A DNA stretch of 64,000 nt from Eledone cirrhosa (taxonomy: Eukaryota): positions 243,350,001-243,414,000 of the forward strand of contig OZ024743.1 of the NCBI GenBank assembly GCA_964016885.1, in the 5' to 3' direction. Positions 3,533 to 64,000 of this stretch are shown piece by piece. The position numbers and the translations under genes were made by a program. Numbering within the stretch: the stretch's first letter is position 1; every line of letters starts with the position of its first letter. The notes beneath the pieces were generated by a model. It made no database searches. It was not told the DNA's origin and saw nothing but the letters and a program-made list of their open reading frames with translations.

Positions 3533-3745
3533 TTAACCCTTTAGCATTTACATTACTCTATATTTACTTTTGTATTTTCACGGTAAAGGCTTTATATCAC
3601 ATATTATCGTATCTATGAGATTTTGATATTTATTTTGAGAACAATACCTTAACATCAGTATGAGTGACCAGTTATGGCCAGTTTGAACAGAATGAGGTAA
3701 CAGGATTCTGGACGGATGCAGCTGGTTTAAATGTTAAACGGTTAA
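3533..3745. mobile_element. piggyBac-like MITE copy
   Basis: Same TIR/TTAA structure as 314-542; right TIR has 2 mismatches. Confidence 0.75.
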
Positions 3746-4603
3746 GCAATAATGATGACATATACATGTATGTGCATATGTCCAGACAAAGAGAGGGAGA
3801 TAAGAAATAAAAGTAAAAGAGAAGGACAGCCACTCTCTCTTACTTTTATTTCTCTTCTCCTTCCCCCCTTCTTACTATAAAACCCTTGTCTCTGTCTGGG
3901 TCTGTTGTGTTTACAACACAAACAACAACAACTGTCTAGATGTAAAATGACGTGGTGATGGTTGGAGTGTGACAAGAGGGAGAGTGTCAAGGAAAACTTG
4001 AGAATTCAAACAGCTTTATATAGAATGTAATCAAGGAATTATTCAATTTAATATTTTTTTTACTATAAACTTCGTAATTTTTAATGGGTACTATACTAGT
4101 AGTGATACATATAGAAGTTATGTCTATTTACATAGGGTGCTTATTCTGAAACTCCACCCATCAGCTTAACTTCATGGCTAATGTCACTCAAAAATGGAAA
4201 ATACAAATATTTTTTTTAAATAGAGAAATCCATACTATAAAGCTGACAGCCGTATGTAGGTAACAAACTTTCTGCCAAATGGCTGGACCAAATGGCACCA
4301 AATTTGCACCATAGATGTAACTTTTTCCAAGTAAAAAAGTGAGGGTATTTTCGTCTACTGAATTTTGTTAAAAAATTAAAGACATTATTTAAATATTCAC
4401 TTCATTAACATTTCAAATGTCAACACTTCCGGTTATACGACATTCCTAACGTCTTCATGAACCAAAATATCATCTTCCTGTTTTCTTTCAGTTGCAACGT
4501 TTTCGAAATATTTACTTCTGCGTTCACAGATTGATTTTTATAGTTTCAGAAGATCCCATTAAGGATGAAAGCAGCGATTCTTTGCTTAAACTTTAATCTG
4601 TTA

Positions 4604-28620: not shown

Positions 28621-31600
28621 TTCTATTTATTGCCATGAGGGCGCAAAAGAAGGGGACAAATACAAGGGGGAGTTTACACAAAAAGGCGAGTAAAGAAAAC
28701 AAATAACAAATATAAAATTAACAATAAAGTCCTCAATAGGGAGGAGGCGTTTTGGGGGGTCGCACACACCCCCGAAAAAAGTGTGCAACCCCTTCTCCTC
28801 AGGAGCACAGAGAGAGGGTGCTCCCTCATTCCTTCATCTTTTCCATCTACAGGCTGATGTAGAGAGAAGGCCCATTCACACGGGCCATTCTCGCCACTTT
28901 CACCCACCTTTCATAAAAACGACTGGGGTTGAGCATCTCTCTCTCCATCCTGATCCTTCTTCCGAAATGATATCGGAAGAAACGGATCAGTTGTTGGCCA
29001 GAGAGAGAGGTGCCTGACCTCCTCAGTCCTTTAAGACGCGTCCACCATACAACCTCTTTCACCATGGTTATTACGCACAGAAACACCACCTCTCCTTCAT
29101 TTTTGAAGGGGAGAGGTGGCTTAATTGTTACAATGGCTTCGGTGGTCAACCGGATCGGTCCCACCCGTGACAGCAGTCATTCGACTTAGCCCGAGCAGTG
29201 TACCAATGCATGTGCAATGGTTTCCTCGTCGCACACGCATCTGGGACAGATCTTTTTGGTGGGGTCCTTACCCAGGCGCCTGTGTCTGTAGAGCTTTTCT
29301 CGAACAGGTAGAGCCCCTCGGTAGCACTGCCAGGCTAGGAACTTCTGGAAGTTGTCCATAGGTCCCGGGCTGAATGTCCTACCGAACAGGCTGGCCAGTT
29401 CGTCTTCCTCTATGTCTAGGGCTTCTCCGAAGGGCGTCGTCGCACCTGCTGCGTACCAGCCCTCTATAGAATGTTGAGGTGGAGTCTCCACTGATAACTG
29501 GGTCCGCTTGCCAGAGGGCCGTGAGCGCCTGGGCACACTCAGTGTGCCAGGTGCCCACTTTTCTCGGTCTTTGCTTGACCCAAGATTGCAGCTCAGTGAG
29601 TGAGACGAGTCTGGGAAAGGTTCGTCTCACAAACGGGGCCCACACCGGTTGACCGGTGAGGAATACGTGGAGGTGCCGTAGCCTTAATGCGTGCTTATGC
29701 ATCATTAGCCACGGCATCCCCAGCCCTCCTTTCGAAGGGTGTTGACAGCAGATGGATCTCCTCACCAAAGGAGCCCGCTTCTTCCAAAGGAATTGGAAGA
29801 GTGCGCGCTCCATCTTGGCGAGGGTTTCCCTTAGGCAAGGCACGACGGTCAGGCGGTAGTAGATGACGCTATATAGGTGTTTGCCACTTCCGCCCGACCT
29901 TTCAGGGATAGTTTGCAACTGGCCACTTATGGGTCAGTGCAAACACCCTGTTCGTAACCTCACCCCAGTTCTTCTCCACCTGGAGGTCTGGTCCGAACCA
30001 GACCCCGAGCAACTTCACCGGGCCCTCCGTCCAGCGTCCGACAACGCCATCGGAGGGCATCGGCTTGCCCCTCCACATGCCGAGTTGCAAACCGATCGAC
30101 TTGTCCCGGTTCAGCTTAGCCTCTGTAAACCTTTCGTACTCCTCCAGTAAGGTCCCGATCACCCCGATTTTGGAGGCCGTCGACACCATACTGTCATATC
30201 ATCGGCGTAGGCCGACACCGCTTTCCACAATCCCGGTTTCAAAGGGATGCCCTGCAACAACTCCAACTTCCGCAGTAGTGGCTCGAGAGTCAATGCATAC
30301 AGAAGGGAGGAGAGAGGGCACCCTTGTCGGATGGACCGCGCGATTTCGAACGGCTCCTAGAGCAGATGCGGCTGCTGTGCATAGCAGTGATCCAGCCCCT
30401 GAAAACGGGTCCGAAGCCTGCGCTGCTAGCACCGCATCCAGGTAACCATGGTCGACCCTACTGAACGCCTTAGATTGATCCAAGTTGATCAGGGCCCCAC
30501 CAAAGCCGGGTTCGTTCCCAACCCTCTCTATGATGTATCGCATGAGGTGGAGGTTGTCATGGATGAACCTGGACAAGATAGCACATGTCTGCGCATTCCC
30601 ACCAGGTTGCCCACGACAAGCGCCAACCTCTTTGCTAACACCTTGGCCAAAATCTGTAACTCTGTATTTAGCAGAGTTATGGGCTTGAAGTTACTTATTT
30701 CGTCCCCCTTGTTCTCGTCCTTCCTCACTAGCGTGGCTACGCCCTTGGTCACAGTACAGGGAATTCTCCCGTTCTGTCGCCAGTTGCAGTAGACCGCCTC
30801 GAGGAGATCGGGGAACAAGTCCGGCATAGCTAGATATAGTTTGTATGGAAGACCATCAAGACTCGGGGATTTGGGTTTGCCGCATTGGCTCAGCACGTCC
30901 TCTATCTCAGTGGCTGAAATCGGCTCCCCTCAGGACTTCGCCTCCACGTCCGAAAGACGCGGCAAGCCATCGAGGTATGGACCGAAGTCCACTTCCCCAA
31001 CCGGCTCCCCGCCCATTCCGAACAATCGGGCAAAGTGCCTTTGAAAGGCCTCACACATCTGCTTCGGCTCAAGGATCGCCCGTCCATCCTGGTCTCACAA
31101 AGACCGGATGGTGGATTTAATTCCACTCTTGGCTTCTGTCACGCGGGCCCAGCTAACAGCTTTGGTCCCCTCGTTTCCTAGAGCACGTATTTTACTTCGG
31201 ACAACGTAGCCTTCGTGCTTCGCGTCGAAAAACTGGCTCAAAGCCGTTCTCGACACTAGCACTCTGGCCACGTCGCCGCTTCTAATTGCCTCTTCTACTC
31301 TGTCTATCAGTTCCCTTTCCTTCCTATTCGCAGCTAAAACCTTACTAAATTCTATCGAGACTAATCTAATCTCTCTCTTTAGAGATACCCACCACCTGCT
31401 GTTGACGATCGCTCCAGTCAACCGTTCCTTAACTAATGTACTAATCCGGTTCCAGTAAGCTTTACTTGCCGGTAGGGACAAGTTCAGCTTCCAGTAACCG
31501 GGACCCTGTCTATGCATTCTATCAAGGTTGACCATGCAGGTCACTAACTTGTGGTCTGAATAGCCAACCATGAGCATTTCTGGACAACTTAAAAAGTCCC

Positions 31601-32100
31601 TGTTCTTATTTCTAACTAAGAACCTATCTAGGTACGATCTAGATTGACCGCTGCGGTTTGACCAAGACCAGGTTGGCACAGTCGGGAAATCTAGTCGAAA
31701 TCTATCGGCCAAGTCAAATCGGCCGAGTAACTCCTTGAGGCTGTTACACCCCTCTCTATTGGGACATGCCCCTGCATAGTCCCAACGTGCATCCATGATA
31801 CCATTCCAGTCCCCCACTAAAAGCAGGTGAACGGGACGTCCCTAGAAAAGGCTCCAGACGCTGGAAGAAGTCGGGCTGCTCTGTCCCAAAAGGGGCATAT
31901 GCGGCTACCAGCCTAAAGGCTCCACCTTCACCACTGCCAAGGTCCAGCACCACCAGTCGACCCCCTGGGTCCAAGTGAACTATCTGTGTGGCGAGACCCA
32001 GATGTTTTTGCAGCAGAACGACAACCCCACCCCACCTCCAGGCTGACAGAGAGATGCGTGCATCTCAAAGTCATCAAAGGTGGGGGGCCAGCTGTCGCTT
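28621..32100 (-). mobile_element. Tx1/L1-clade LINE ORF2, 5'-truncated and frameshifted
   Basis: EN motifs GDWN, SYLDRF, SDHK, GPGYWKLN; RT motifs KSPSLDGLP, PITLLNTE, LINLDQSKAF; C-terminal CCHC CPRC...ETIAHALVHC; GC-rich; A-rich tail at (TA)n. Confidence 0.9.
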
Positions 32101-34334: not shown

Positions 34335-34561
34335 TTAACCCTTAGCATTTACATTACTCTATATTTACTATTGTATTTTCGTGGTAAAGGCTTTATCTCA
34401 TAAAATATCTTACATAATATCAAATCTATGAGATTTTGATATTATTTATTTTGAGAACAATACCTTCACATCAGTATGACAGACTAGTTATGGCCGGTTT
34501 GAACAGAAAGCAGTGAGAGAATTCTGGCTAGATACAGCCAGTATAAATGCTAAAGGGTTAA
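34335..34561. mobile_element. piggyBac-like MITE copy
   Basis: TTAACCC...TAAATGCTAAAGGGTTAA. Confidence 0.78.
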
Positions 34562-34581
34562 GCAATAATGATGACATATAC

Positions 34582-37500
34582 ATCATCATCATCATCATCA
34601 CCGTTTTACGTCCGTTCTTCCACGCTAGCATGGGTTAGACGGGTTGTCCTGTTGTGGGCAGTGTCTGGTCGGCTGACCATGCCTTGCTCATACAGGAACT
34701 GATCTGGCTTGATTTCTACAGCTGGATGCCCTTCCTAACACCAACCTCATTTACAGTGAGTGCTGGGTGCTTTTTCGTGGCGCCTACACGTCCACTTTAC
34801 AGTGTGGGCTGGGTGCTTTTTTGCCGTGGCACCTCCACGACCACCTTGCGGTGGGGGGGGGGGGGGGGGGGGCATATTGTTTATATGCTTCAGCATGTAC
34901 CCATGGGAGGTCGGGTACCCTGTATTACTGCGTGACGCCAGAAGTCACGGTCGTGTGTCATTGACTTTGAGAGGTGTAGTTGGGTAAGGTCGGCTTTTAT
35001 CACCTCATCCCAAGTCATCTTGGGTCTCCCCACTCCGCGGTTTCCATCAACTTCTAGTGCTCTGCACCTTTTTATGCAGCTGTCATCCTTCATACGCATC
35101 ACATGTCCATACCAGCGTAACCGCCTCTCCTGCACGCAGCATTTGATTCCTCTTATGCTCAGTCTCTCTCTCAATTCATTTATGCTTTGTCGTTCACGTA
35201 TATTACTGTTACACATCCATCGGAGCATGCAGGCTTCGTTTCTCTCTAATCTACGTAAGTCTTCCACCTTCAGCGCCCAGGTCTCACTACCATGCAACAT
35301 CGCTGTTCGGATACACGCATCATACAGTCTGCCTTTCATTCTGAGGGAGAAGCCTTTTGCAGCTAGCAGTGGTAGTAGTTCCCTAAACTTCTTCCATCCC
35401 GTTCTTACCCTAGTTATTGTACTTTCTGAGCACCCACCTCCGTTGCTAATTCGGTCACCTAGGTAGCAGAAGCTGTCTACTGTTTCTACAGGGCCCTCCC
35501 AGAGATTGGTGGTACTTGTTTCCTGTGGCTGTTTGCTTGCTGTTTCAGCACAGCTGCTGCATGTGAATCCTACATTCTTAATTAAGCTTCCTGAGATCCC
35601 GCTACATCTCTTGTGTACCCATTGTTTGCATTTGGGGCAAAGAATGGAGTTCCTACCTACACCTTTCCTACATACTGAGCAAGGCCATTTCCCTGAGGGG
35701 ATCTGGGTTCTGTTTTCTCGTCTACTTATAAGGACCTTAGTCTTTGTCATGTTGACTTTGAGGCCCTTTCTCTCTAGTCCCTGCTTCCAGGTTTGGAATT
35801 TATTCTCTAGTTCTACCATAGATTCAGCTATGAGTGCGAGGTCATCAGCATAAGGAGTTCCCATGGGCATCCGGTCTTAAACTCCTCCGTTATTGCCTGC
35901 AGGACTATGATGAACAGGAGAGGGCTAAGAACAGAGCCCTGGTGGACCCCAACCTGTACGCTAAATTCCTCGCTATACTCATTGCCAATCCTAACTTTGC
36001 TGACTGCTCCCCTATACATGGCTTGTACCGCTTTCACAAGCCATTCATCTACTCCTAGTTTTCTAAGAGCCCACCAGATTACTGCACGTGGAACTCTGTC
36101 AAAGGCTTTCTCAAGGTCGACAAATGCCAAGTAGAGTGGCTTACTTTTAGCTAGGTACTTTTCCTGTAATTGCCTCACAAGGAAGAGCGCATCAGTGGTG
36201 CCTTTCCCTGGAACAAACCCAAATTGCATCTCGTCTATATTCACCCGGTCCCTAATCAGCTGTGCTATAACTCTTTCTGTTACTTTCATGACCTGGTCCA
36301 TCAACTTTATACCTCTATAGTTTCCTCTATCTAGTGCATCGCCTTTACCTTTGTAGCAGTTGACAATGATGCTACTGCACCAATCTTTTGGTATGGCCCC
36401 CTCTAGTATTACCTGGTTAACGATACGTGTGGTTATAGTGTGACCTACAGACCCAGATGCCTTCAGCATCTCGGCAGCTATACCCGATGGACCGGTTGCC
36501 TTCCCTATCTTCATATCTCTGATTGCCTTACTTACTACGCTGCCGCTGACTTGTACTGCTGGTCCCTCTATAGGGTCTACGTGGGGTAGGGTCTCTTCTT
36601 CCCATGCATTCTCCTCATTTAGTAATCTATCATAATGACTCTTCCATGCATCTTTCTTCTCAGCACTTGTGAGGGCAAGCTCACCTTTATCATTCCGGAT
36701 ACACTTCTCTCCAATGACATCACAACTATCTCTGACACACTGCCTCGCAATCTTGAATACCTCCTGTTTCTGGTCCTCACGTTGTAAAACATGCTTGAAT
36801 TTTCTATCCTCTGCTTCCCTCCTAGCTAAGTATACTTGTCGCCTAGCTTCCCTCTTGGTCTCTATGTAATGTACCCTGCTCCCCCCGTTCTTCCATTCTT
36901 TCCATGCCTGTCTCTTGGCCTTGACTGCTTCATCTACCTTATTGTTCCACCACCAAGTCACTCTCCTCCTGCTTGAGGTCTTACTCCAGCCACAAACCTC
37001 ATCCGTCGCCTCTAGTAAGTTATTTTTTAGGAACTCCCAGTTCTCTTCTACGTTAAATGTCTCTATCTGTTCTTCTTTACTGTCGTAGGCGTTGAGTAAA
37101 ATATCTTTAAATCTGTTACTGGTTGAGGGGACTTTCAGCTTCCAGATCTTTCTTCTCCAGGTTGGCCTCTGTTTCAGGGCTCGTCTAGTTCTGACCGTGA
37201 GGTCGCTGACAACTAAGCTATGTTGGGATGTACATTCCTCACTAGGGAAGGCTTTTGTGTTTACGACCGTCCATCTGTCACGTCCTCTGATGAGGATAAA
37301 ATCTAACTGACTAGAGTGCTCCCCTGATCTATAGGTGATCAGGTGGTTGTCGGGTTTTTTAAAGTTTGTGTTACATATCGACATGTCATTGGCGTCGCAG
37401 AATTCTAGAAGTCTGAATCCTTCCTCATTCCTTGTGCCAACTCCATGGCCTCCATGTACTCTATTGAAGCCGTCGCAGTGTTTACCTACGTGTCCGTTAA

Positions 37501-39425
37501 AATCTCCTGCAATGATTAGGAAGTCCTTGTCGTCTGTTAGAGCAGTAGTGTGTATTAGGGACTCGTAAAACCTATCCTTAAGTTCGTCTGGCAGCCCCGA
37601 TTGGGGTGCGTAAGCTGATATTATTGTGGTAATTGTCTTATTCAGGACTAGTCTGAGTTTAATGATTCTTGCATTTACCCTGTACACTGAGATTACTTTA
37701 TCTACCCACTTGTCAGCTAATAGTATACCTACACCACCCATCCCATCGTCATTTCCCACCCAGAAAAATTTGTAGCACTGGCTTTTTCCTACAAGGACTC
37801 TAGCAGACCCTCCTCTCCATCTAGTCTCTTGCACACAGCATACATCAACTTCCTTTCGCTCTAGCATTTCTACGATTTCTCCTGCTCTTCCTTTCATTGA
37901 GCCTACATTGATGGTACCAACTCGGAGTTTTGGGCATTTGTCGACACTCGTAGGGGAGGGTCTCTGGGTTGGCGCTTCACGTGGGTGCTTGGTAGCTCGC
38001 AGATTCATATTTCATCTATTGATTCAGAGTTGCTCGTGTATTCCCAGCTCATCCATCCCTAACGGTGGGAAAATTGAGGGCTAGAAGGACAGTGGTGGTG
38101 GGGTAATGGCAGGGTGTGTTGGGATGCGCCAGAGGAGGAGAGAGTTAGTTAGGCAGGTAGTAGCAGCAGCAGCAGTGAAAATGGCATGCTAGGTTTGATT
38201 GGTCGAATAGACTATGGTGGTGTGTGGGGGTGGGGGGGGGGGGGGGAAATTGTGAGGTAGGAACTGAGGGTCGCATGGTAAATATCCAAGTTAATACTAC
38301 ATCAGTAAAATTAACAATAATAACGTCATGAAAAAAGCTACTAAGAGAAACCCTCGAAAATTTATCGCTAATACAGCAGGGAAAATTTAACGCTAATACA
38401 GCAGGGAACATCATAATATTAACGACATGAAAAAGCTACTAAGAGAAACCCTCGAAAATTTATCGCTAATACAGCAGGGAAAATTTAACGCTAATACAGC
38501 AGGGAACATCATAATATTAACGACATGAAAAAGCTACTAAGAGAAACCCTCGAAAATTTATCGCTAATACAGCAGGGAAAATTTAACGCTAATACAGCAG
38601 GGAACATCATAATATTAACGACATGAAAAAGCTACTAAGAGAAACCCTCGAAAATTTATCGCTAATACAGCAGGGAAAATTTAACGCTAATACAGCAGGG
38701 AACATCATAATATTAACGACATGAAAAAGCTACTAAGAGAAACCCTCGAAAATTTATCGCTAATACAGCAGGGAAAATTTAACGCTAATACAGCAGGGAA
38801 CATCATAATATTAACGACATGAAAAAGCTACTAAGAGAAACCCTCGAAAATTTATCGCTAATACAGCAGGGAAAATTTAACGCTAATACAGCAGGGAACA
38901 TCATAATATTAACGACATGAAAAAGCTACTAAGAGAAACCCTCGAAAATTTATCGCTAATACAGCAGGGAAAATTTAACGCTAATACAGCAGGGAACATC
39001 ATAATATTAACGACATGAAAAAGCTACTAAGAGAAACCCTCGAAAATTTATCGCTAATACAGCAGGGAAAATTTAACGCTAATACAGCAGGGAACATCAT
39101 AATATTAACGACATGAAAAAGCTACTAAGAGAAACCCTCGAAAATTTATCGCTAATACAGCAGGGAAAATTTAACGCTAATACAGCAGGGAACATCATAA
39201 TATTAACGACATGAAAAAGCTACTAAGAGAAACCCTCGAAAATTTATCGCTAATACAGCAGGGAAAATTTAACGCTAATACAGCAGGGAACATCATAATA
39301 TTAACGACATGAAAAAGCTACTAAGAGAAACCCTCGAAAATTTATCGCTAATACAGCAGGGAAAATTTAACGCTAATACAGCAGGGAACATCATAATATT
39401 AACGACATGAAAAAGCTACTAAGAG
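34582..39425 (-). mobile_element. Near full-length RTE LINE (copy A): 5' 98-bp monomer array, 5'UTR, EN-RT ORF with one frameshift, 3'UTR, (GAT)n tail
   Basis: ORFs 35828..38008 (VQETRW, SAYAPQ, GDFNGHVG, QLDFIL, RT motifs) and 34890..35870 (YADD onward), joined by a 1-nt deletion near 35852 relative to copy B. Confidence 0.95.
38317..39425. repeat. 98-bp tandem array, about 11 essentially identical units
   Basis: aatattaacg recurs at 38611, 38709 ... 39101 (period 98); each unit has two cgctaatacagcagggaa sub-repeats. Confidence 0.97.
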
Positions 39426-39552
39426 ATGTATTTGCACATACATGTATGTGCAAATGTATATGTCATCATTAAAGTATTAGTTGAAGAAGGAATAGTGATA
39501 AAGAATTTGGATTTGATGTTTTTAATATAAATATGAAAAAATGAATAAAAAC

Positions 39553-40877
39553 CTTTTTTCTGAAGATTCACTCTTTGTTGAGACAACAGATGAGCAAGTA
39601 CTGCATGGATTTAGAGATTGATTGAATGTCACAGCGGAGTTTTGATTAATTTTCATTTGCTGAATTTGAGCTTTAAGTTCTTGCAATTCAGCACTTTGTT
39701 GCATTAATAACCGATATATTTCTGGAGGAATAGTATCTTTCTGAATCTTTGACAACTGTGGATCAGTTTCCTGAGAAGGATCAGGACTGTCACTAAGTCC
39801 ACTGTCTTTACTGGCTCGGAAGTTCTGATCTTCTGATACATCTATTACACTGTTTTCACACTGTCTAGCACCTGTGTTCTCTTTTATAGAGCTGCGTGAG
39901 TTATTGGCTGGAGTATTGCTGCAAGAACTGTTCAAGCTGTTGATGAGGTTCAGCTTAGTCTGTGGTTGTTTATTAACAGCAATTTCTTGGTCATGTTTGT
40001 CAAGGCACTGGATGTGAGTAGTAATACAGTTTATGTTTTCGTCATGTCCCTGACACACTGGGGCTGGGTTTGGAGGGAGGATGTTTGGTGTACTTGTATG
40101 ATGGTATGAAGGACTTGGTTGAGATTTAGCATGGACAATACAACAAGGGCATGAAGGTAATGTTGGTAACTTGTCAACTGCAGTCTGTGGATATGGTGAC
40201 ATCGATGAATGAGGTGGCATAGGATGAGAATTAACTATATGATACCTTTCACACATTACAGGAGATGTAAAGCAAGGCGATGGCTTCATAAAGTTTGGTT
40301 GGGAAGGAAAAGGTCCATATGGAGAGGAATTGGGCATATTGTTCATGACTGGCTTGGGATGATGAGTATGATATGAATTTGGCAGTGGAACTAAATTATT
40401 TTGAGAATAGTACTGGAAATGAGGGTGTTGTTCTGAATTAGATCCCTGCATAATCTCTTTGTTTTGAAAATGTATAGGGGAAGGATAGACAGATCTATTA
40501 TATTCAGATACTGGCAATGGGTTTCTGGTAGGTAATGATTGTAGTGTGGGGTGATTTATATACATGTTAACATCTGTTGTAATGTTTTGATGAATGGGAA
40601 CACCTGAATACATTAATGGTTTTTTGGACTGCTGGCAGAATTGTGTTGGTGCTAAAGAAGCAGCACATATCGGATTAACAGCTTTTGAAGTTGGATATGA
40701 ATTCTTCTTTGGCAATGATGGTAAACCTTGTGTACAAACAGGAGAACTGTAATGTGATGGAATTTTATTTGGCACAGTATGTGAAGAGTTGTCATGATAT
40801 TTTCGTTGAAATGAAGGTTGACTGGTATCATTGAATATCAAAGATACTTCCGGAACAGAAAATCTGGCTTCAGGTAT
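39553..40877 (-). CDS. STIL: STIL large central exon (Pro/Ser/His-rich region plus PLK4-binding coiled coil)
   Basis: Inside ORF 39522..40910; begins IPEARFSVPEVSLIF (cf. SVPELSLV) and contains PEIYRLLMQQSAELQELKAQIQQM (cf. [24 protein letters not shown]); 1325 nt, phase 0 to 2. Confidence 0.93.
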
Positions 40878-41912
40878 CTGAACAATAAATATACAATAAA
40901 TAATTTTCAATCAATCAACTTTAAATATTAAAATATTTAAGTAGTCGTTAGAAACATTTACATTTTTTACTCTTTGGAGAATAGCCTGGTCAAAACTAGC
41001 TCTGGTTCAATAAAACAGAACTACCTATTTTAAAGAGTTCTCATTTAAATTTAAAAAATTATATATAAGAACCACTTCTTATGTTACAAATGCTATCTTA
41101 ACAAGGAAATAATAATTTTAGTAAACACCTCAAAATTTTTAATTAATTAAAATACATTATGTCATTAGAAATATGTTAACGAAGGTGTTAATGTTTTTAT
41201 GTTTTCAACATAGAGAGGATACACTAAGATTTTCATTCAATTATCATAAAATAATTACTTTTTCATTAGCAAAAGCTTGTGAAGTTGTATGGTTAGGTTA
41301 GTCCAATGAAATCATAACAGTAGATCATCATCATTTAATATTCATTTTCACTGCTAGCAAAGGTTGAACAGGTTTTCACACACCGAGTCAGTACTCAGGC
41401 AGGGCTACTGACCTCCCAGACAAGCTGTAAAGTCTACATCTCACTAACATATGGTCTCAAGTGTATTTTATCATGACATGACACTAGCACTAGAGAGGTT
41501 GTCATGTCTTTGACACAACTGAAGGATCCTCAGATAACTTTAACTGGGTTTGAACTCACAATTTAATGCCTTCAGTTTTATTCTCTACCAACTCATGTAA
41601 CAGGAAGGGAACATTTGATTATATCAACTGTGGTGTTCTAAATATTGTGTTACCTTTGTTCCTTGGAGGGAAGGAATAATAATAACCGTTTCTGATTTAG
41701 GCACAAGACCAATAATTTTGGGGGAGGGGTAAGTCGATTAAATCGACTCAGTGCATTACTGGTACTTTATTTTATCGATCCTGTGAGGATAAAAGTGAAG
41801 CTAACTTCAGTGGGATTTGAACACAGAACATAAAGGGCCATAAACTCTATACTGCAAAGCATATTGCCCAATGCTCTTTGGATACTGCCAATCCACTGCC
41901 GTAATTTTCAAC

Positions 41913-47546: not shown

Positions 47547-47654
47547 CTGCAATACATAAAGAAAAATTCAGTTGCAAACTGGCATAAAGAACAATCTGGT
47601 TTTCTGTAGATTGCAACTGGCAACTAATAACAAACTAGAGAGACTAAAACTCAC

Positions 47655-47741
47655 CGTTGGTTTAAAGAATTGTTGTAAAGGTACCGTAGACAAGACGCCC
47701 ACACATATGGATTGTTCACACAGTCTACTCCACTTACCCAA
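47655..47741 (-). CDS. STIL: STIL exon
   Basis: CAG/GTGAG borders, 87 nt; WVSGVDCVNNPYVWASCLRYLYNNSLNQR matches STIL [29 protein letters not shown]. Confidence 0.95.
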
Positions 47742-48094: not shown

Positions 48095-50310
48095 AGTGAG
48101 GACAGCAGCAGCATTGTACTATTGGTTGGTGGATAGAACAGCACTGTACAGCTGGCTGGTGAGGACAACAGCAGCACTGTACAGCTGGCTGGTGAGGACA
48201 ACAGCAGCACTGTACAGCTGGCTGGTAGAGCAACAGCAGCACTGTACAGCTGGCTGGTGAGGACAACAGCAGCACTGTACAGCTGGCTGGTAGAGCAACA
48301 GCAGCACTGTACAGCAGGCAGGTGAGGACAACAGCAGCACTGTACAGCTGGCTGGTGAGGACAACAACAGCACTGTACAGCTGGCTGGTGAGGACAACAG
48401 CAGCACTGTACAGCAGGCTGGTGAGGACAACAACAGCACTGTACAGCTGGCTGGTGAGGACAACAGCAGCACTGTACAACAGGCTGGTAGAGACAACAGC
48501 AGCACTGTACAGCTGGCTAGTAGAGACAACAGCAGCACTGTACAGCAAGCTGGTAGAGACAACAGCAGCACTGTACAGCAAGCTGGTGAGGACAACAACA
48601 TCACTGTACAGCAGGCTGGTGAGGACAACAACATCACTGTACAGCAGGCTGGTAGAGACAACAGCAGCACTGTACAGCAGGCTGGTAGAGACAACAGCAG
48701 CACTGTACAGCTGGCTGGTGAAGATAGAACAGCACTGTACAGCAGGCTGGTAGAGACAACAGCAGTACTGTACAGCAGGCTGGTAGAGACAACAGCAGCA
48801 CTGTACAGCTGGCTGGTGAAGATAGAACAGCACTGTACAGCTGGCTGGTGAAGATAGAACAGCACTGTACAGCTGGCTGGTGAAGATAGAACAGCACTGT
48901 ACAGCTGGCTGGTAGAGACAACAGCAGCACTGTACAGCAGGCTGGTAGAGACAACAGCAGCACTGTACAGCAGGCTGGTAGAGACAACAGCAGCACTGTA
49001 CAGCAGGCAGGTGAGGACAACAACAGCACTGTACAGCAGGCTGGTGAGGACAACAGCAGCACTGTACAGCAGGCTGGTGAAGACAACAGCAGTACTGTAC
49101 AGCTGGCTGGTAGAACAACAGCAGCACTGTACAGCTGGCTGGTAGAGCAACAGCAGCACTGTACAGCAGGCTGGTAGGGACAACAGCAGCACTGTACAGC
49201 TGGCTGGTAGGGACAACAGCAGCACTGTACAGCTGGCTGGTAGAGCAACAGCAGCACTGTACAGCAGGCTGGTGAGGACAACAGCAGCACTGTACAGCTG
49301 GCTGGTAGGGACAACAGCAGCACTGTACAGCTGGCTGGTAGGGACAACAGCAGCACTGTACAGCTGGCTGGTAGAGCAACAGCAGCACTGTACAGCAGGC
49401 TGGTGAGGACAACAGCAGCACTGTACAGCTGGCTGGTAGAGCAACAGCAGCACTGTACAGCAGGCAGGTGAGGACAACAGCAGCACTGTACAGCTGGCTG
49501 GTGAGGACAACAACAGCACTGTACAGCTGGCTGGTGAGGACAACAGCAGCACTGTACAGCAGGCTGGTGAGGACAACAACAGCACTGTACAGCTGGCTGG
49601 TGAGGACAACAGCAGCACTGTACAGCAGGCTGGTAGAGACAACAGCAGCACTGTACAGCTGGCTAGTAGAAACAACAGCAGCACTGTACAGCAAGCTGGT
49701 AGAGACAACAGCAGCACTGTACAGCAAGCTGGTGAGGACAACAACATCACTGTACAGCAGGCTGGTGAGGACAACAACATCACTGTACAGCAGGCTGGTA
49801 GAGACAACAGCAGCACTGTACAGCAGGCTGGTAGAGACAACAGCAGCACTGTACAGCTGGCTGGTGAAGATAGAACAGCACTGTACAGCAGGCTGGTAGA
49901 GACAACAGCAGTACTGTACAGCAGGCTGGTAGAGACAACAGCAGCACTGTACAGCTGGCTGGTGAAGATAGAACAGCACTGTACAGCTGGCTGGTGAAGA
50001 TAGAACAGCACCGTACAGCTGGCTGGTGAAGATAGAACAGCACTGTACAGCAGGCTGGTAGAGACAACAGCAGCACTGTACAGCAGGCTGGTAGAGACAA
50101 CAGCAGCACTGTACAGCAGGCTGGTAGAGACAACAGCAGCACTGTACAGCAGGCTAGTAGAAACAACAGCAGCACTGTACAGCTGGCTAGTAGAGACAAC
50201 AGCAGCACTGTACAGCTGGCTAGTAGAGACAACAGCAGCACTGTACAGCTGGCTAGTAGAGACAACAGCAGCACTGTACAGCAAGCTGGTGGCTAGTGAG
50301 GATAACAACA
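48095..50310. repeat. ~33-bp minisatellite (about 67 units) with a 1146-bp higher-order duplication
   Basis: Unit gaggacaacagcagcactgtacagctggctggt with 32-bp variants; 48322-48753 recurs at 49468-49899. Confidence 0.97.
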
Positions 50311-50353
50311 AAAATGAAACATGTATTTAAAAGAAAAATAGCAAATAGCTTAC

Positions 50354-50437
50354 ATTCCAATTAGAGGCAGGGTGGAAACCTTAGGATCTGTCTCCAACAT
50401 TAACACTAATTTGCGTGTATGGTCCATGGTGACATAA
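50354..50437 (-). CDS. STIL: STIL exon
   Basis: AG/GTAAG borders, 84 nt; [28 protein letters not shown] matches STIL [28 protein letters not shown]. Confidence 0.95.
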
Positions 50438-50515
50438 CTGGAGAAAAAACAGAAGTGAACTGAACATGACATCAAACAAACTTAATTTAATGACTCAGAG
50501 GATATATATATATAT

Positions 50516-51930: not shown

Positions 51931-52143
51931 AATCATCCAATGTAGAGTTACACCCACATAAGGTACCTGTAACTCATCAGTCAAGAGACCCAGTCAGCTG
52001 GCATGAAAAACAATATGTAATCTTTCAGTTCATAAGATATTTAGCTAGCTGTCGTAAAAGAATATATTTCATTAAATTATGTTGAAATATTGTATGAAAA
52101 ACAAACAAACAATTTAAGCTCTCCAATTCCAAAAGGCACTTAC

Positions 52144-52391
52144 CCAGATTTAGCCTTGCCCTGAAGTCTACTCAAACTCATAGGACTGGCAAGATTCTTT
52201 GCTAAAGCTGTAGTCATAATAGTGACGGGATTGATTGGCACTGCTTCAAATTTAGCTGCTGAGGTGAACACATCAAATTCAACACAGTATGCAGAATTGC
52301 CATTTTCCATCTGGACAAAAAACTTTCCAAGGACTGAGAAAAAATTCCCAATACTGATTGGATCTTTACTGGAGCAGTGATTAATGACATT
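52144..52391 (-). CDS. STIL: STIL homologue, first coding exon visible in window (STIL N-terminal conserved domain)
   Basis: Acceptor ttttctAG, donor GG|GTAAGT; 248 nt, phase 0 to 2. Translates NVINHCSSKDPISIGNFF...AVPINPVTIMTTALAKNLASPMSLSRLQGKAKSG, resembling vertebrate STIL ...PIIPTALARNLSS...QGTYKYG (recalled). Confidence 0.9.
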
Positions 52392-52403
52392 CTAGAAAAT
52401 GAG

Positions 52404-55400
52404 AGACATTAGACATATAGTCACATATTAGACATATGGTAACATATTAGACATTAGGCATATATTATCAAAGACATAAGACATATAACATCTTAGACAT
52501 TAGACATACAGTGACATAGACATTAGACATACAGTGACATAGACATTAGACATATAGTGACATAGACATTAGATATACAGTGACATAGACATTAGATATA
52601 TAGTGACATAGACATTAGACATTAGATATATAGTGACATAGACATTAGATATATAGTGACATAGACATTAGATATATAGTGACATAGACATTAGATATAT
52701 AGTGACATAGACATTAGATATACAGTGACATAGACATTAGATATAGAGAGACATAGACATTAGATATATAGTGACATAGACATATAGTGACATAGACATT
52801 AGACATACAGTGACATAGACATTAGACATACAGTGACATAGACATTAGATATATAGTAACATAGACATTAGATATATAGTGACATAGACATTAGACATAC
52901 AGTGACATAGACATTAGATATATAGTGACATAGACATTAGATATATAGTGACATAGACATTAGACATATAGTGACATAGACATTAGACATACAGTGACAT
53001 AGACATTAGATATATAGTGACATAGACATTAGATATATAGTGACATAGACATTAGATATACAGTGACATAGACATTAGATATACAGTGACATAGACATTA
53101 GATATACAGTGACATAGACATTAGATATACAGTGACATAGACATTAGATATACAGTGACATAGACATTAGATATACAGTGACATAGACATTAGACATATA
53201 GTGACATAGACATTAGATATATAGTGACATAGACATTAGATATATAGTGACATAGACATTAGATATATAGTGACATAGACATTAGATATACAGTGACATA
53301 GACATTAGATATACAGTGACATAGACATTAGATATACAGTGACATAGACATTAGACATATAGTGACATAGACATTAGATATATAGTGACATAGACATTAG
53401 ACATATAGTGACATAGACATTAGACATATAGTGACATAGACATTAGATATACAGTGACATAGACATTAGATATACAGTGACATAGACATTAGATATACAG
53501 TGACATAGACATTAGATATACAGTGACATAGACATTAGATATACAGTGACATAGACATTAGATATACAGTGACATAGACATTAGATATGTAGTGACATAG
53601 ACATTAGACATATAGTGACATAGACATTAGATATATAGTGACATAGACATTAGACATACAGTGACATAGACATTAGACACATAGTGACATAGACATTAGA
53701 TATACAGTGACATAGACATTAGATATACAGTGACATAGACATTAGATATACAGTGACATAGACATTAGACATATAGTGACATAGACATTAGATATATAGT
53801 GACATAGACATTAGACATATAGTGACATAGACATTAGACATATAGTGACATAGACATTAGATATATAGTGACATAGACATTAGATATATAGTGACATAGA
53901 CATTAGATATATAGTGACATAGACATTAGACATACAGTGACATAGACATTAGATATACAGTGACATAGACATTAGACATATAGTGACATAGACATTAGAT
54001 ATATAGTGACATAGACATTAAATATATAGTGACATAGACATTAGACATATAGTGACATAGACATTAGACATATAGTGACATAGACATTAGACATTAGATA
54101 TATAGTGACATAGACATTAGATATATAGTGACATAGACATTAGATATACAGTGACATAGACATTAGATATATAGTGACATAGACATTAGACATATAGTGA
54201 CATAGACATTAGATATATAGTGACATAGATATTAGATATATAGTGACATAGACATTAGACATATAGTGACATAGACATTAGACATACAGTGACATAGACA
54301 TTAGATCTCTAGTGACATAGACATTAGATATATAGTGACATAGACATTAGACATAGTCACAAAGACATTAGACATACAGTCACATAGACATTAGACATAT
54401 AGTTACATAGACATTAGATATATAGTGACATAGACATTAGACATACAGTGACATAGACATTAGACATATAGTGACATAGACATTAGACATACAGTGACAT
54501 AGACATTAGACATATAGTGACATAGACATTAGACATACAGTGACATAGACATTAGACATATAGTGACATAGACATTAGATATATAGTGACATAGACATTA
54601 GACATACAGTGACATAGACATTAGACATATAGTGACATAGACATTAGATATATAGTGACATAGACATTAGATATATAGTGACATAGACATTAGACATATA
54701 GTGACATAGACATTAGATATATAGTGACATAGACATTAGACATACAGTGACATAGACATTAGACATACAGTGACATAGACATTAGACATACAGTGACATA
54801 GACATTAGATATATAGTGACATAGACGTTAGATATATAGTGACATAGACATTAGACATACAGTGACATAGACATTAAACATATAGTGACATAGATATTAG
54901 ACATATAGTGACATAGACATTAGATATACAGTGACATAGACATTAGACATACAGTAACATAGACATTAGATATACATAGACATTAGACATATAGTGACAT
55001 AGACATTAGACATATAGTGACATAGACATTAGACATATAGTGACATAGACATTAGATATACAGTGACATAGACATTAGATATACAGTGACATAGACATTA
55101 GATATACAGTGACATAGACATTAGACATATAGTGACATAGACATTAGATATACAGTGACATAGACATTAGACATATAGTGACATAGACATTAGATATACA
55201 GTGACATAGACATTAGACATATAGTGACATAGACATTAGATATACAGTGACATAGACATTAGACATATAGTGACATAGACATTAGATATATAGTGACATA
55301 GACATTAGATATATAGTGACATAGACACTAGATATACAGTGACATAGACATTAGACATACAGTGACATAGACATTAGACATACAGTAACATAGACATTAG

Positions 55401-58400
55401 ACATACAGTGACATAGACATTAGACATACAGTGACATAGACATTAGACATTAAACATACAGTGACATAGACATTAGATATATAGTGACATAGACATTAGA
55501 CATACAGTGACATAGACATTAGACATACAGTGACATAGACATTAGACATACGGTGACATAGACATTAGACATACAGTGACATAGACATTAGATATATAGT
55601 GACATAGACATTAGACATACACATTAGACATACAGTGACATAGACATTAGATATACAGTGACATAGACATTAGACATATAGTGACATAGACATTAGACAT
55701 ACAGTGACAGAAATTAGATATACAGTGACATAGACATTAGATATACAGTGACATAGACATTAGACATATAGTGACATAGACATTAGACATACAGTGACAT
55801 AGACATTAGACATACAGTGACATAGACATTAGACATACAGTGACATAGACATTAGACATACAGTGACATAGACATTAGACATATAGTGACATAGACATTA
55901 GACATACAGTGACATAGACATTAGATATACAGTGACATAGACATTAGACATACAGTGACATAGACATTAGACATACAGTGACATAGACATTAGATATACA
56001 GTGACATAGACATTAGACATACAGTGACATAGACATTAGATATACAGTGATATAGACATTAGACATACAGTGACATAGACATTAGACATACAGTGACATA
56101 GACATTAGATATATAATGACATAGACATTAGACATATAGTGACATAGACATTAGACATACAGTGACATAGACATTAGATATACAGTGACATAGACATTAG
56201 ACATATAGTGACATAGACATTAGATATACAGTGATATAGACATTAGACATACAGTGACATAGACATTAGACATACAGTGACATAGACATTAGATATATAG
56301 TGACATAGACATTAGACATATAGTGACATAGACATTAGACATACAGTGACATAGACATTAGATATACAGTGACATAGACATTAGACATATAGTGACATAG
56401 ACATTAGACATATAGTGACATAGACATTAGACATATAGTGACATAGACATTAGATATATAGTGACATAGATATTAGATATATAGTGACATAGACATTAGA
56501 CATATAGTGACATAGACATTAGACATACAGTGACATAGACATTAGATCTCTAGTGACATAGACATTAGATATATAGTGACATAGACATTAGACATAGTCA
56601 CAAAGACATTAGACATACAGTCACATAGACATTAGACATATAGTTACATAGACATTAGATATATAGTGACATAGACATTAGACATACAGTGACATAGACA
56701 TTAGACATATAGTGACATAGACATTAGACATACAGTGACATAGACATTAGACATATAGTGACATAGACATTAGATATATAGTGACATAGACATTAGACAT
56801 ACAGTGACATAGACATTAGACATATAGTGACATAGACATTAGATATATAGTGACATAGACATTAGATATATAGTGACATAGACATTAGACATATAGTGAC
56901 ATAGACATTAGATATATAGTGACATAGACATTAGACATACAGTGACATAGACATTAGACATACAGTGACATAGACATTAGACATACAGTGACATAGACAT
57001 TAGATATATAGTGACATAGACGTTAGATATATAGTGACATAGACATTAGACATACAGTGACATAGACATTAAACATATAGTGACATAGATATTAGACATA
57101 TAGTGACATAGACATTAGATATACAGTGACATAGACATTAGACATACAGTAACATAGACATTAGATATACATAGACATTAGACATATAGTGACATAGACA
57201 TTAGACATATAGTGACATAGACATTAGACATATAGTGACATAGACATTAGATATACAGTGACATAGACATTAGATATACAGTGACATAGACATTAGATAT
57301 ACAGTGACATAGACATTAGACATATAGTGACATAGACATTAGATATACAGTGACATAGACATTAGACATATAGTGACATAGACATTAGATATACAGTGAC
57401 ATAGACATTAGACATATAGTGACATAGACATTAGATATACAGTGACATAGACATTAGACATATAGTGACATAGACATTAGATATATAGTGACATAGACAT
57501 TAGATATATAGTGACATAGACACTAGATATACAGTGACATAGACATTAGACATACAGTGACATAGACATTAGACATACAGTAACATAGACATTAGACATA
57601 CAGTGACATAGACATTAGACATACAGTGACATAGACATTAGACATTAAACATACAGTGACATAGACATTAGATATATAGTGACATAGACATTAGACATAC
57701 AGTGACATAGACATTAGACATACAGTGACATAGACATTAGACATACGGTGACATAGACATTAGACATACAGTGACATAGACATTAGATATATAGTGACAT
57801 AGACATTAGACATACACATTAGACATACAGTGACATAGACATTAGATATACAGTGACATAGACATTAGACATATAGTGACATAGACATTAGACATACAGT
57901 GACAGAAATTAGATATACAGTGACATAGACATTAGATATACAGTGACATAGACATTAGACATATAGTGACATAGACATTAGACATACAGTGACATAGACA
58001 TTAGACATACAGTGACATAGACATTAGACATACAGTGACATAGACATTAGACATACAGTGACATAGACATTAGACATATAGTGACATAGACATTAGACAT
58101 ACAGTGACATAGACATTAGATATACAGTGACATAGACATTAGACATACAGTGACATAGACATTAGACATACAGTGACATAGACATTAGATATACAGTGAC
58201 ATAGACATTAGACATACAGTGACATAGACATTAGATATACAGTGATATAGACATTAGACATACAGTGACATAGACATTAGACATACAGTGACATAGACAT
58301 TAGATATATAGTGACATAGACATTAGACATATAGTGACATAGACATTAGACATACAGTGACATAGACATTAGATATACAGTGACATAGACATTAGACATA

Positions 58401-61400
58401 TAGTGACATAGACATTAGATATACAGTGATATAGACATTAGACATACAGTGACATAGACATTAGACATACAGTGACATAGACATTAGATATATAGTGACA
58501 TAGACATTAGACATATAGTGACATAGACATTAGACATACAGTGACATAGACATTAGATATACAGTGACATAGACATTAGACATATAGTGACATAGACATT
58601 AGACATATAGTGACATAGACATTAGATATATAGTGACATAGACAATAGATATACAGTGACATAGACATTAGATATACAGTGACATAGACATTAGATATAC
58701 AGTGACATAGACATTAGATATACAGTGACATAGACATTAGATATACAGTGACATAGACATTAGATATACAGTGACATAGACATTAGACATATAGTGACAT
58801 AGACATTAGATATATAGTGACATAGACATTAGATATATAGTGACATAGACATTAGATATATAGTGACATAGACATTAGATATACAGTGACATAGACATTA
58901 GATATACAGTGACATAGACATTAGATATACAGTGACATAGACATTAGACATATAGTGACATAGACATTAGATATATAGTGACATAGACATTAGACATATA
59001 GTGACATAGACATTAGACATATAGTGACATAGACATTAGATATACAGTGACATAGACATTAGATATACAGTGACATAGACATTAGATATACAGTGACATA
59101 GACATTAGATATACAGTGACATAGACATTAGATATACAGTGACATAGACATTAGATATACAGTGACATAGACATTAGATATGTAGTGACATAGACATTAG
59201 ACATATAGTGACATAGACATTAGATATATAGTGACATAGACATTAGACATACAGTGACATAGACATTAGACACATAGTGACATAGACATTAGATATACAG
59301 TGACATAGACATTAGATATACAGTGACATAGACATTAGATATACAGTGACATAGACATTAGACATATAGTGACATAGACATTAGATATATAGTGACATAG
59401 ACATTAGACATATAGTGACATAGACATTAGACATATAGTGACATAGACATTAGATATATAGTGACATAGACATTAGATATATAGTGACATAGACATTAGA
59501 TATATAGTGACATAGACATTAGACATACAGTGACATAGACATTAGATATACAGTGACATAGACATTAGACATATAGTGACATAGACATTAGATATATAGT
59601 GACATAGACATTAAATATATAGTGACATAGACATTAGACATATAGTGACATAGACATTAGACATATAGTGACATAGACATTAGACATTAGATATATAGTG
59701 ACATAGACATTAGATATATAGTGACATAGACATTAGATATACAGTGACATAGACATTAGATATATAGTGACATAGACATTAGACATATAGTGACATAGAC
59801 ATTAGATATATAGTGACATAGATATTAGATATATAGTGACATAGACATTAGACATATAGTGACATAGACATTAGACATACAGTGACATAGACATTAGATC
59901 TCTAGTGACATAGACATTAGATATATAGTGACATAGACATTAGACATAGTCACAAAGACATTAGACATACAGTCACATAGACATTAGACATATAGTTACA
60001 TAGACATTAGATATATAGTGACATAGACATTAGACATACAGTGACATAGACATTAGACATATAGTGACATAGACATTAGACATACAGTGACATAGACATT
60101 AGACATATAGTGACATAGACATTAGATATATAGTGACATAGACATTAGACATACAGTGACATAGACATTAGACATATAGTGACATAGACATTAGATATAT
60201 AGTGACATAGACATTAGATATATAGTGACATAGACATTAGACATATAGTGACATAGACATTAGATATATAGTGACATAGACATTAGACATACAGTGACAT
60301 AGACATTAGACATACAGTGACATAGACATTAGACATACAGTGACATAGACATTAGATATATAGTGACATAGACGTTAGATATATAGTGACATAGACATTA
60401 GACATACAGTGACATAGACATTAAACATATAGTGACATAGACATTAGACATATAGTGACATAGACATTAGATATACAGTGACATAGACATTAGACATACA
60501 GTAACATAGACATTAGATATACATAGACATTAGACATATAGTGACATAGACATTAGACATATAGTGACATAGACATTAGACATATAGTGACATAGACATT
60601 AGATATACAGTGACATAGACATTAGATATACAGTGACATAGACATTAGATATACAGTGACATAGACATTAGACATATAGTGACATAGACATTAGATATAC
60701 AGTGACATAGACATTAGACATATAGTGACATAGACATTAGATATACAGTGACATAGACATTAGACATATAGTGACATAGACATTAGATATACAGTGACAT
60801 AGACATTAGACATATAGTGACATAGACATTAGATATATAGTGACATAGACATTAGATATATAGTGACATAGACATTAGATATACAGTGACATAGACATTA
60901 GACATACAGTGACATAGACATTAGACATACAGTAACATAGACATTAGACATACAGTGACATAGACATTAGACATACAGTGACATAGACATTAGACATTAA
61001 ACATACAGTGACATAGACATTAGATATATAGTGACATAGACATTAGACATACAGTGACATAGACATTAGACATACAGTGACATAGACATTAGACATACGG
61101 TGACATAGACATTAGACATACAGTGACATAGACATTAGATATATAGTGACATAGACATTAGACATACACATTAGACATACAGTGACATAGACATTAGATA
61201 TACAGTGACATAGACATTAGACATATAGTGACATAGACATTAGACATACAGTGACAGAAATTAGATATACAGTGACATAGACATTAGATATACAGTGACA
61301 TAGACATTAGACATATAGTGACATAGACATTAGACATACAGTGACATAGACATTAGACATACAGTGACATAGACATTAGACATACAGTGACATAGACATT

Positions 61401-64000
61401 AGACATACAGTGACATAGACATTAGACATATAGTGACATAGACATTAGACATACAGTGACATAGACATTAGATATACAGTGACATAGACATTAGACATAC
61501 AGTGACATAGACATTAGACATACAGTGACATAGACATTAGATATACAGTGACATAGACATTAGACATACAGTGACATAGACATTAGATATACAGTGATAT
61601 AGACATTAGACATACAGTGACATAGACATTAGACATACAGTGACATAGACATTAGATATATAGTGACATAGACATTAGACATATAGTGACATAGACATTA
61701 GACATACAGTGACATAGACATTAGATATACAGTGACATAGACATTAGACATATAGTGACATAGACATTAGATATACAGTGATATAGACATTAGACATACA
61801 GTGACATAGACATTAGACATACAGTGACATAGACATTAGATATATAGTGACATAGACATTAGACATATAGTGACATAGACATTAGACATACAGTGACATA
61901 GACATTAGATATACAGTGACATAGACATTAGACATATAGTGACATAGACATTAGATATACAGTGATATAGACATTAGACATACAGTGACATAGACATTAG
62001 ACATATAGTGACATAGACATTAGATATACAGTGACATAGACATTAGACATACAGTGACATAGACATTAGATATATAGTGACATAGACATTAGATATACAT
62101 AGACATTAGACATACAGTGACATAGACATTAGACATATAGTGACATAGACATTAGATATATAGTGACATAGACATTAGATATACAGTGACATAGACATTA
62201 GACATATAGTGACATAGACATTAGATATACAGTGACATAGACATTAGATATACAGTGACATAGACATTAGATATACAGTGACATAGACATTAGATATACA
62301 GTGACATAGACATTAGACATACAGTAACATAGACATTAGATATACAGTGACATAGACATTAGATATACAGTGACATAGACATTAGATATACAGTGACATA
62401 GACATTAGATATACAGTGACATAGACATTAGATATACAGTGACATAGACATTAGACATACAGTAACATAGACATTAGACATACAGTGACATAGACATTAG
62501 ATATACAGTGACATAGACATTAGATATACAGTGACATAGACATTAGATATACAGTGACATAGACATTAGACATATAGTGACATAGACATTAGATATATAG
62601 TGACATAGACATTAGATATATAGTGACATAGACATTAGATATATAGTGACATAGACATTAGATATACAGTGACATAGACATTAGATATACAGTGACATAG
62701 ACATTAGATATACAGTGACATAGACATTAGACATACAGTAACATAGACATTAGACATACAGTGACATAGACATTAGATATACAGTGACATAGACATTAGA
62801 TATACAGTGACATAGACATTAGACATATAGTGACATAGACATTAGATATATAGTGACATAGACATTAGATATATAGTGACATAGACATTAGATATATAGT
62901 GACATAGACATTAGATATACAGTGACATAGACATTAGATATACAGTGACATAGACATTAGACATATAGTGACATAGACATTAGATATATAGTGACATAGA
63001 CATTAGATATATAGTGACATAGACATTAGATATATAGTGACATAGACATTAGATATATAGTGACATAGACATTAGACATATAGTGACATAGACATTAGAC
63101 ATATAGTGACATAGACATTAGATATACAGTGACATAGACATTAGATATACAGTGACATAGACATTAGATATACAGTGACATAGACATTAGATATACAGTG
63201 ACATAGACATTAGATATATAGTGACATAGACAGTAGATATATAGTGACATAGACATTAGATATACAGTGACATAGACATTAGATATACAGTGACATAGAC
63301 ATTAGATATATAGTGACATAGACATTAGATATACAGTGACATAGACATTAGACATACAGTGACATAGACATTAGACATATAGTGACATAGACATTAGATA
63401 TATAGTGACATAGACATTAGATATATAGTGACATAGACATTAGATATGTAGTGACATAGACATTAGATATACAGTGACATAGACATTAGATATACAGTGA
63501 CATAGACATTAGATATATAGTGACATAGACATTAGATATACAGTGACATAGACATTAGATATATAGTGACATAGACATTAGACATATAGTGACATAGACA
63601 TTAGATATACAGTGACATAGACATTAGACATATAGTGACATAGACATTAGATATACAGTGACATAGACATTAGACATATAGTGACATAGACATTAGATAT
63701 ACAGTGACATAGACATTAGATATATAGTGACATAGACATTAGATATACAGTGACATAGACATTAGATATACAGTGACATAGACATTAGATATACAGTGAC
63801 ATAGACATTAGATATACAGTGACATAGACATTAGACATACAGTGACATAGACATTAGCTATATAGTGACATAGACATTAGATATATAGTGACATAGACAT
63901 TAGATATACAGTGACATAGACATTAGACATACAGTGACATAGACATTAGATATATAGTGACATAGACATTAGACATACAGTGACATAGACATTAGACATA
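52404..64000. repeat. 23-bp satellite, about 500 units, running off the window end, inside a STIL intron
   Basis: Unit gacattaga(c/t)ata(c/t)agtgacata; degenerate at 52404-52500, regular thereafter. Confidence 0.98.

Follow-up and report, generated by a model that had tools for sequence, protein, structure and literature searches.

The tandem array at 38316–39426 of the window, by which we mean the whole 64,000-nucleotide stretch of Eledone cirrhosa DNA that was analysed, is probably the truncated front of a young RTE-type LINE. Comparison with other copies suggests that the 5′ end of this LINE is built of stacked ~408-bp monomers, likely serving as internal promoters for RNA polymerase II, and that a 98-bp sub-module of these monomers has been multiplied only in the youngest subfamily.

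The window copy and its insertion site

TRF resolved the array into 11.3 copies of a 98-bp period with 99% matches. It adjoins the 5′ leader of an EN-RT element on the minus strand, and the ~11 units that the earlier note had counted directly 5′ of this leader were recovered: ten units at 38414–39393 are identical to each other, one degenerate unit lies next to the leader (38316–38413), and a 33-bp partial unit (39394–39426) marks the 5′ truncation point. By unit comparison, the degenerate unit corresponds to the single 98-bp unit (U) of older copies and the ten identical units to the U block that comes first in copies of the young subfamily. Each unit carries two 25-bp sub-repeats with the core named in the earlier note; a 33-codon frame present in each was treated as chance. 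The remainder of the element, also on the minus strand, consists of a unique 5′ leader or tether (38009–38315), which holds a CCAAT match in the motif scan and whose first ~60 bases are related to the beginning of the family's spacer S (see below), a single ORF with Pfam matches to AP endonuclease, reverse transcriptase and a PHD-type finger (34890–38008), a 3′ UTR (34601–34889) with 97–100% identity to other copies, and a (GAT)n microsatellite tail (34584–34600) with which other copies likewise end. The ORF is interrupted by a 1-base deletion near 35852, and both S and the promoter-like motif that it holds elsewhere are gone from the window copy, which, being frameshifted as well, is likely a dead daughter.

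The element is bounded by a 6-bp target-site duplication, ATACAT, at 34578–34583 and 39438–39443. Host sequence, which the earlier note had resume at 39426, restarts only at 39438; the intervening filler (39427–39437) is missing from the empty allele and can be read as neighbouring target DNA copied in inverted orientation. That allele is seen in run X1, in a contig of 2,089 bp that matches 39438–40300 and runs leftward into the left flank at 34563–34577 (15 bases), thus joining the flanks across the target duplication and placing the array inside the insertion, as had been proposed. The paralogous site at 3737–3790 of the window, where a related uninterrupted sequence had been noticed near 3757, agrees with this reading. 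Run X1 may derive from the sample behind the assembly, and the empty allele is therefore likely to reflect recent insertion in the heterozygous state, not to support the reading independently. The idea that the flanking palindrome was a product of the insertion alone was dropped, since the empty allele has one too, in imperfect form, and the insertion added no more than the filler. The 98-mer closes on itself in short-read contigs from X1, X4 and X5, as does the larger monomer in X4. Depth in X1 is 9,903 for the contig of the 98-mer versus 5.3 for a unique flank contig, a ratio that, contig depth being a rough measure, is near the number of assembly matches given below.

The insertion lies ~110 bases downstream of, and in the same orientation as, an open frame at 39553–40910 (minus strand) without a Pfam match. 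This frame is read as a large exon of a host STIL-like gene on the basis of its position and of a motif that we take to tie it to STIL; STIL_N matches lie upstream on the same strand at 47648–47740, 50350–50442 and 52140–52403. A 23-bp satellite of at least 11.6 kb (52404–64000) starts right at the edge of the last of these stretches, and a GC-rich 33-bp tandem repeat of 67 copies (48099–50290) lies between STIL_N-matching exons. Elsewhere in the window are a broken second LINE with endonuclease- and reverse transcriptase-like frames (30199–32064, minus strand), which from its motifs we take to be of the L1/Tx1 type, and a short element that occurs twice (34335–34561 and 3535–3745) and has terminal inverted repeats that end in TTAA. 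Both of its copies are followed by the same ~30-base extension, which was the target of the RTE insertion in the window copy.

An RTE family with a tandem 5′ array

Named homologues of the element's protein include Bombyx EN-RT (34% over 71%) and CFDP2-like proteins, which we assume to be RTE-type; the match to human L1 ORF2p is far lower (1e-32). An ORF of 1037–1040 aa was found in 61 of 94 copies examined, with 1039 aa in the intact copies. As in the RTE clade, this single ORF combines AP endonuclease and reverse transcriptase by Pfam with no ORF1, and the element ends in (GAT)n with no poly(A). The PHD-type finger follows the reverse transcriptase core (35550–35680 of the window, minus strand), and this EN-RT-PHD layout is common among the unnamed homologues. 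No ORF of at least 100 aa occurs in the monomer. Target-site duplications in the clade are given as 6–12 bp (PMC2887409), a range that includes the 6 bp of the window locus; among the 29 of 86 copies that lack TA-repeat flanks, ten showed no matching duplication, 12 a match of 4–5 bases (chance level) and seven a match of at least 6 bases. TA-repeat flanks were present in the other 57 of these 86 copies (loci L031–L146). Taken as a whole, the anatomy inferred from sequence fits the RTE clade as the available text of PMC2887409 describes it.

The family was surveyed by counting exact pattern matches in assembly G000, contig C1 being that of the main sampling. An exact 33-mer of the 98-bp unit gave 1,923 matches and its reversed control none, and there were 10,552 matches for the 3′ end, 488 for the leader, and 746 and 917 for the young and old variants of the spacer. 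The first 13 clusters of 98-mers on C1 all head full-length copies, in variable number, as the earlier note would have expected of a family trait, and the ORFs of these copies are ~99.9% identical. When all 93 leader-bearing copies on C1 were retrieved, chosen by the tether alone, 85 had their 5′ end inside the array and the other eight inside the tether; no other 5′ module was seen in the junctions of the leader-bearing copies on C1. Clusters of the young spacer were attached to an RTE copy in 30 of 30 cases on C1, and those of the old spacer in 31 of 31 among the first 100 matches listed, one of them internally deleted. The 5′ array is a trait of the family.

Several further features of these loci were noted. 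Three pairs (L082/L083, L096/L097 and L116/L117) share 5′ junctions and are duplicated loci, not independent insertions. Several 5′ junctions, such as that of L034, hold inverted copies of 3′-flank sequence. A second RTE-like family, ~75% identical, is often found near L031, L032, L035, L036 and others.

In this family the repeating module measures ~408 bp and comprises a 311-bp spacer (S) and one U, with 0–169 monomers per copy and 1–19 U per monomer. U itself holds the 25-bp sub-repeat in one, two or three copies, giving U-U spacings of 74–75, 95–98 and 123, and the array therefore has three nested tiers of 25, 98 and ~408 bp. Older copies contain one U per module, and tandem U (2–19 per monomer) is confined to the youngest clade with a single exception. 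In a tree of 73 informative bodies, 16 of 89 having been excluded because of excessive truncation, one clade nested among single-U copies takes in 36 of the 37 tandem-U copies, with an SH-aLRT support of only 81; the tandem-U label changes twice on this tree compared with 24.6 times when shuffled. The 37th copy, L120, carries a different small duplication. Median nearest-neighbour distances of 0.06% for tandem-U copies versus 0.35% indicate that, by this sequence measure, tandem-U copies are younger than single-U copies. Because the window copy belongs to the young clade and is cut within its first U block, only 98-mers are visible there.

The number of sub-repeats per monomer rises from one in the most diverged copies through 1–2 to 3–38 in the youngest (22 selected copies), a trend that would fit selection for dose and equally well plain slippage. 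Template slippage, which the earlier note had offered as an origin of the array, probably explains the 98-bp tier. The U block proximal to the leader was longer than the others in 11 cases, shorter in four and equal in nine (p 0.12), and the idea that it is the longest was set aside as not significant.

Predicted promoter and renewal of the array

The family module contains a candidate core promoter within S. Using a short DPE rule for the motif search, TCATTC was found at S165–170 and AGACA at exactly +28 to +32 relative to a +1 at about S167. This combination of Inr and DPE at the correct spacing arises in 24 of 3,000 shuffles. Of 243 parsed monomers, 235 keep it with exact spacing, and neither U nor the tether nor the window array contains it; the sole common variant within the DPE-like word retains the consensus. 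The Inr matches at 7/8 and the downstream element at 6/8 positions of the consensus in PMC1636488, a Drosophila consensus that we assume to apply in this host.

The distribution of 5′ ends was compared with this predicted start. Most 5′ ends are scattered outside the predicted start zone, and the truncation points often show microhomology; ends are in excess at the predicted start and immediately beyond it. On C1, 16 of 50 independent ends within S fall in S156–196 (scan p 0.03) and a further 40 ends lie in U, after four rows were dropped as duplicates or gapped. Genome-wide, S156–184 holds 34 TA-flanked junctions and three windows of the same size hold 15, 12 and 17; only TA-flanked junctions were used, distinct places were counted by hand, and the control windows had different anchors, so that catch rates may differ. 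The excess at S156–184 is 2.2–2.4-fold. Outside C1 the counts were 30 versus 14, 9 and 14 (binomial p 3e-4), an enrichment of about 2.4-fold; removal of three old-variant junctions and one duplicated junction gave p 1.5e-3, and comparison with an equally AT-rich window alone gave 27 versus 9 (p 0.002). Inspection of the junctions by eye revealed no cap-derived extra G. These observations suggest that S, not U, likely carries the predicted core promoter.

Monomers are homogenised within copies, differing at 1.5 positions within a copy versus 9.0 between copies (243 monomers, 75 copies), and private changes run through the entire arrays of L090, L125 and L084/L124. L034 and L036 have identical aligned bodies and differ in U counts and monomer number. 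Some monomers of L038/L039 are short hybrids in which the first 59 bases of the leader are rejoined to the 98-bp unit, irregularly interspersed, which suggests template switching. At the other extreme, an array of 169 monomers and 63 kb lies 5′ of one copy with an intact ORF (G000:C1:422727350-422790500; L119, L127, L128, L132-L136), and another full-length copy has an array of ~27 monomers and 10 kb (L144/L145, G000:C1:378740446-378750481). The 63-kb array contains long and short monomer variants and irregular local duplications of 11–13 monomers; a fixed higher-order period was looked for there and only local block duplications were found. Because of their length, as argued for a 50-monomer mouse L1 array that is ascribed to unequal crossing-over (PMC6454616), arrays on the 63-kb scale point by analogy to growth in place by unequal exchange.

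Taken together, these features can be accommodated by the following scheme. Transcription would start at the Inr in S (at about S167, with the DPE-like AGACA at +28 to +32) of any upstream monomer, so that the RNA would carry the downstream monomers and the daughter copy would retain a promoter. Lost monomers would be regrown by tandem duplication of proximal ones through slippage, template switching or unequal exchange; such duplication would leave monomers uniform within a copy and could occasionally run away to arrays of satellite size. The same process may also have multiplied U, and conceivably this raised the dose of a putative factor-binding motif beside the start. A bolder version, to which we give tentative and minority weight, is that a self-renewing monomer promoter built on Inr+DPE has arisen independently in an RTE-type LINE and is now escalating: a 25-bp putative factor-binding motif would have gone from one to two to tens per monomer, the higher-dose subfamily would now be spreading, and the same regrowth would be seeding 10–63-kb satellites attached to intact elements.

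The scattering of most 5′ ends would also be expected if the array were a by-product of slippage or recombination with no promoter role, transcription coming from the tether or from host read-through. The CCAAT match in the tether and the sense orientation of the window copy within the STIL gene lend this account some support, as does the report of upstream promoters and a 5′ ribozyme in the RTE element Perere-3 (PMC8501958). A start in the tether would not copy upstream monomers, however, yet 85 of 93 copies have them, and the motif in S is kept with exact spacing and coincides with an excess of 5′ ends; we regard this explanation as unlikely. Somewhat more doubtful still is the original proposal of the earlier note that the 98-bp unit is itself a promoter monomer with additive activity, the window copy being an 11-monomer promoter. 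It draws on the 40 of 98 non-redundant 5′ ends that lie in U, on the CpG ratio of U, which is the highest (o/e 1.36; the monomer has a GC content of 0.35–0.37 and no CpG island), and on the rise in sub-repeats toward the youngest copies. It did not hold up against the finding that the family module is ~408 bp: U is single in older, likewise mobile copies and lacks the Inr+DPE, the motif and the excess of 5′ ends being in S, which the window copy lacks, and since U makes up much of the length of young arrays, ends there are expected from truncation alone.

A self-cleaving ribozyme in each monomer, excising the element from longer transcripts, is very improbable. A loose HDV-like descriptor does fit U (0 of 60 shuffles), but the fit consists largely of G-U pairs and a strict descriptor finds nothing; no Rfam ribozyme was found at E<=5, only sub-threshold chance matches, the CUGANGA hammerhead core is absent from both strands, predicted folding of the unit is not superior to that of shuffled sequences (z -0.2), and only one independent 5′ end (L096/L097) lies at the predicted G. 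Membership among ribozyme-headed retrotransposons or retrozymes, with an HDV-like, hammerhead or twister ribozyme at a fixed 5′ junction, was accordingly rejected. The perfect identity of ten units might have suggested that the array is a host satellite already in place, or an artefact of assembly. This is refuted at the family level and has practically no probability left, because the empty allele lacks the array, the array never occurs away from RTE copies in the 61 clusters listed, and short-read contigs confirm both tandem tiers; the unit count given for the window copy is that of the assembly.

A stack of ~408-bp promoter monomers is probably the best account of the array. How mouse L1 monomer promoters persist despite 5′ truncation is stated to be unclear (PMC6454616), and the present family provides an independent, very young case of a monomer array outside the L1 clade. 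Its ~490 leader-bearing copies, polymorphic insertion, sister copies with identical bodies and different arrays, and three tiers whose order a tree can give make it directly testable whether regrowth takes place at insertion or later. The family also shows satellites arising from the front end of a retrotransposon. The window locus alone is of modest interest: its copy is polymorphic, probably dead, and lies next to what is read as a STIL exon.

Comparison with known systems

Among RTE elements, BmRTE/HmRTE (PMC2887409), Perere-3 (PMC8501958) and the octopus RTE-2_OV (PMC9115989) resemble the window family in having a single EN-RT ORF of ~1000–1100 aa, a 3′ microsatellite tail and many 5′-truncated copies, and RTE-2_OV also has a zinc finger, a likeness by description only (PMC9115989). 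In the available descriptions, the 5′ ends of these elements either carry a ribozyme or are unique UTRs of short length (276 bp; about 600 nt), and no monomer array appears (PMC2887409, PMC8501958, PMC9115989). The word 'monomer' does not occur in the available main text of the octopus papers PMC9115989 and PMC13282606, whose supplements may contain a consensus of this family. A search of titles and abstract openings, whose coverage stopped short of most subscription journals and Repbase, returned no report of a 5′ monomer array in an RTE element.

Two other groups of non-LTR elements share single features with the family. The A-module of Dictyostelium TRE5-A can reportedly be tandem. It is a 5′ module with promoter activity, as predicted here, in an element that, unlike the window family, has two ORFs and targets tRNA genes (PMC3159450). 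The Drosophila elements jockey, Doc, F, G and I likewise have an Inr and a downstream element at the expected distance, but their promoter is near the very 5′ end, whereas the motif in the window family is present once per monomer (PMC1636488).

The closest parallel is with mouse L1Md (A, Gf and Tf monomers plus a tether) and rat L1, in which, as here, a unique tether is preceded on its 5′ side by tandem monomers whose number varies (PMC6454616, PMC9022269, PMC5381506) and which are part of the mobile unit. In mouse L1Md the 5′-most monomer is also truncated, most monomers are found in the youngest subfamilies, and very long arrays are rare (PMC6454616). The differences are that mouse L1Md is an L1 whereas the window family is a single-ORF, RTE-type LINE without ORF1; that mouse L1Md is CpG-rich with a YY1 site whereas the window family is AT-rich (35–37% GC), has no YY1 match and has an Inr+DPE-like core; and that the window family, unlike mouse L1Md, has a ~408-bp monomer, three nested tiers, near-uniform monomers within a copy and one array of 169 monomers. 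The peak of 5′ ends in mouse A monomers is much sharper than in the window family (PMC6454616). By analogy, we infer that the window family works like the L1Md monomer promoter without being a member of that group, a mouse-L1-like design with a predicted promoter role being its best reading.
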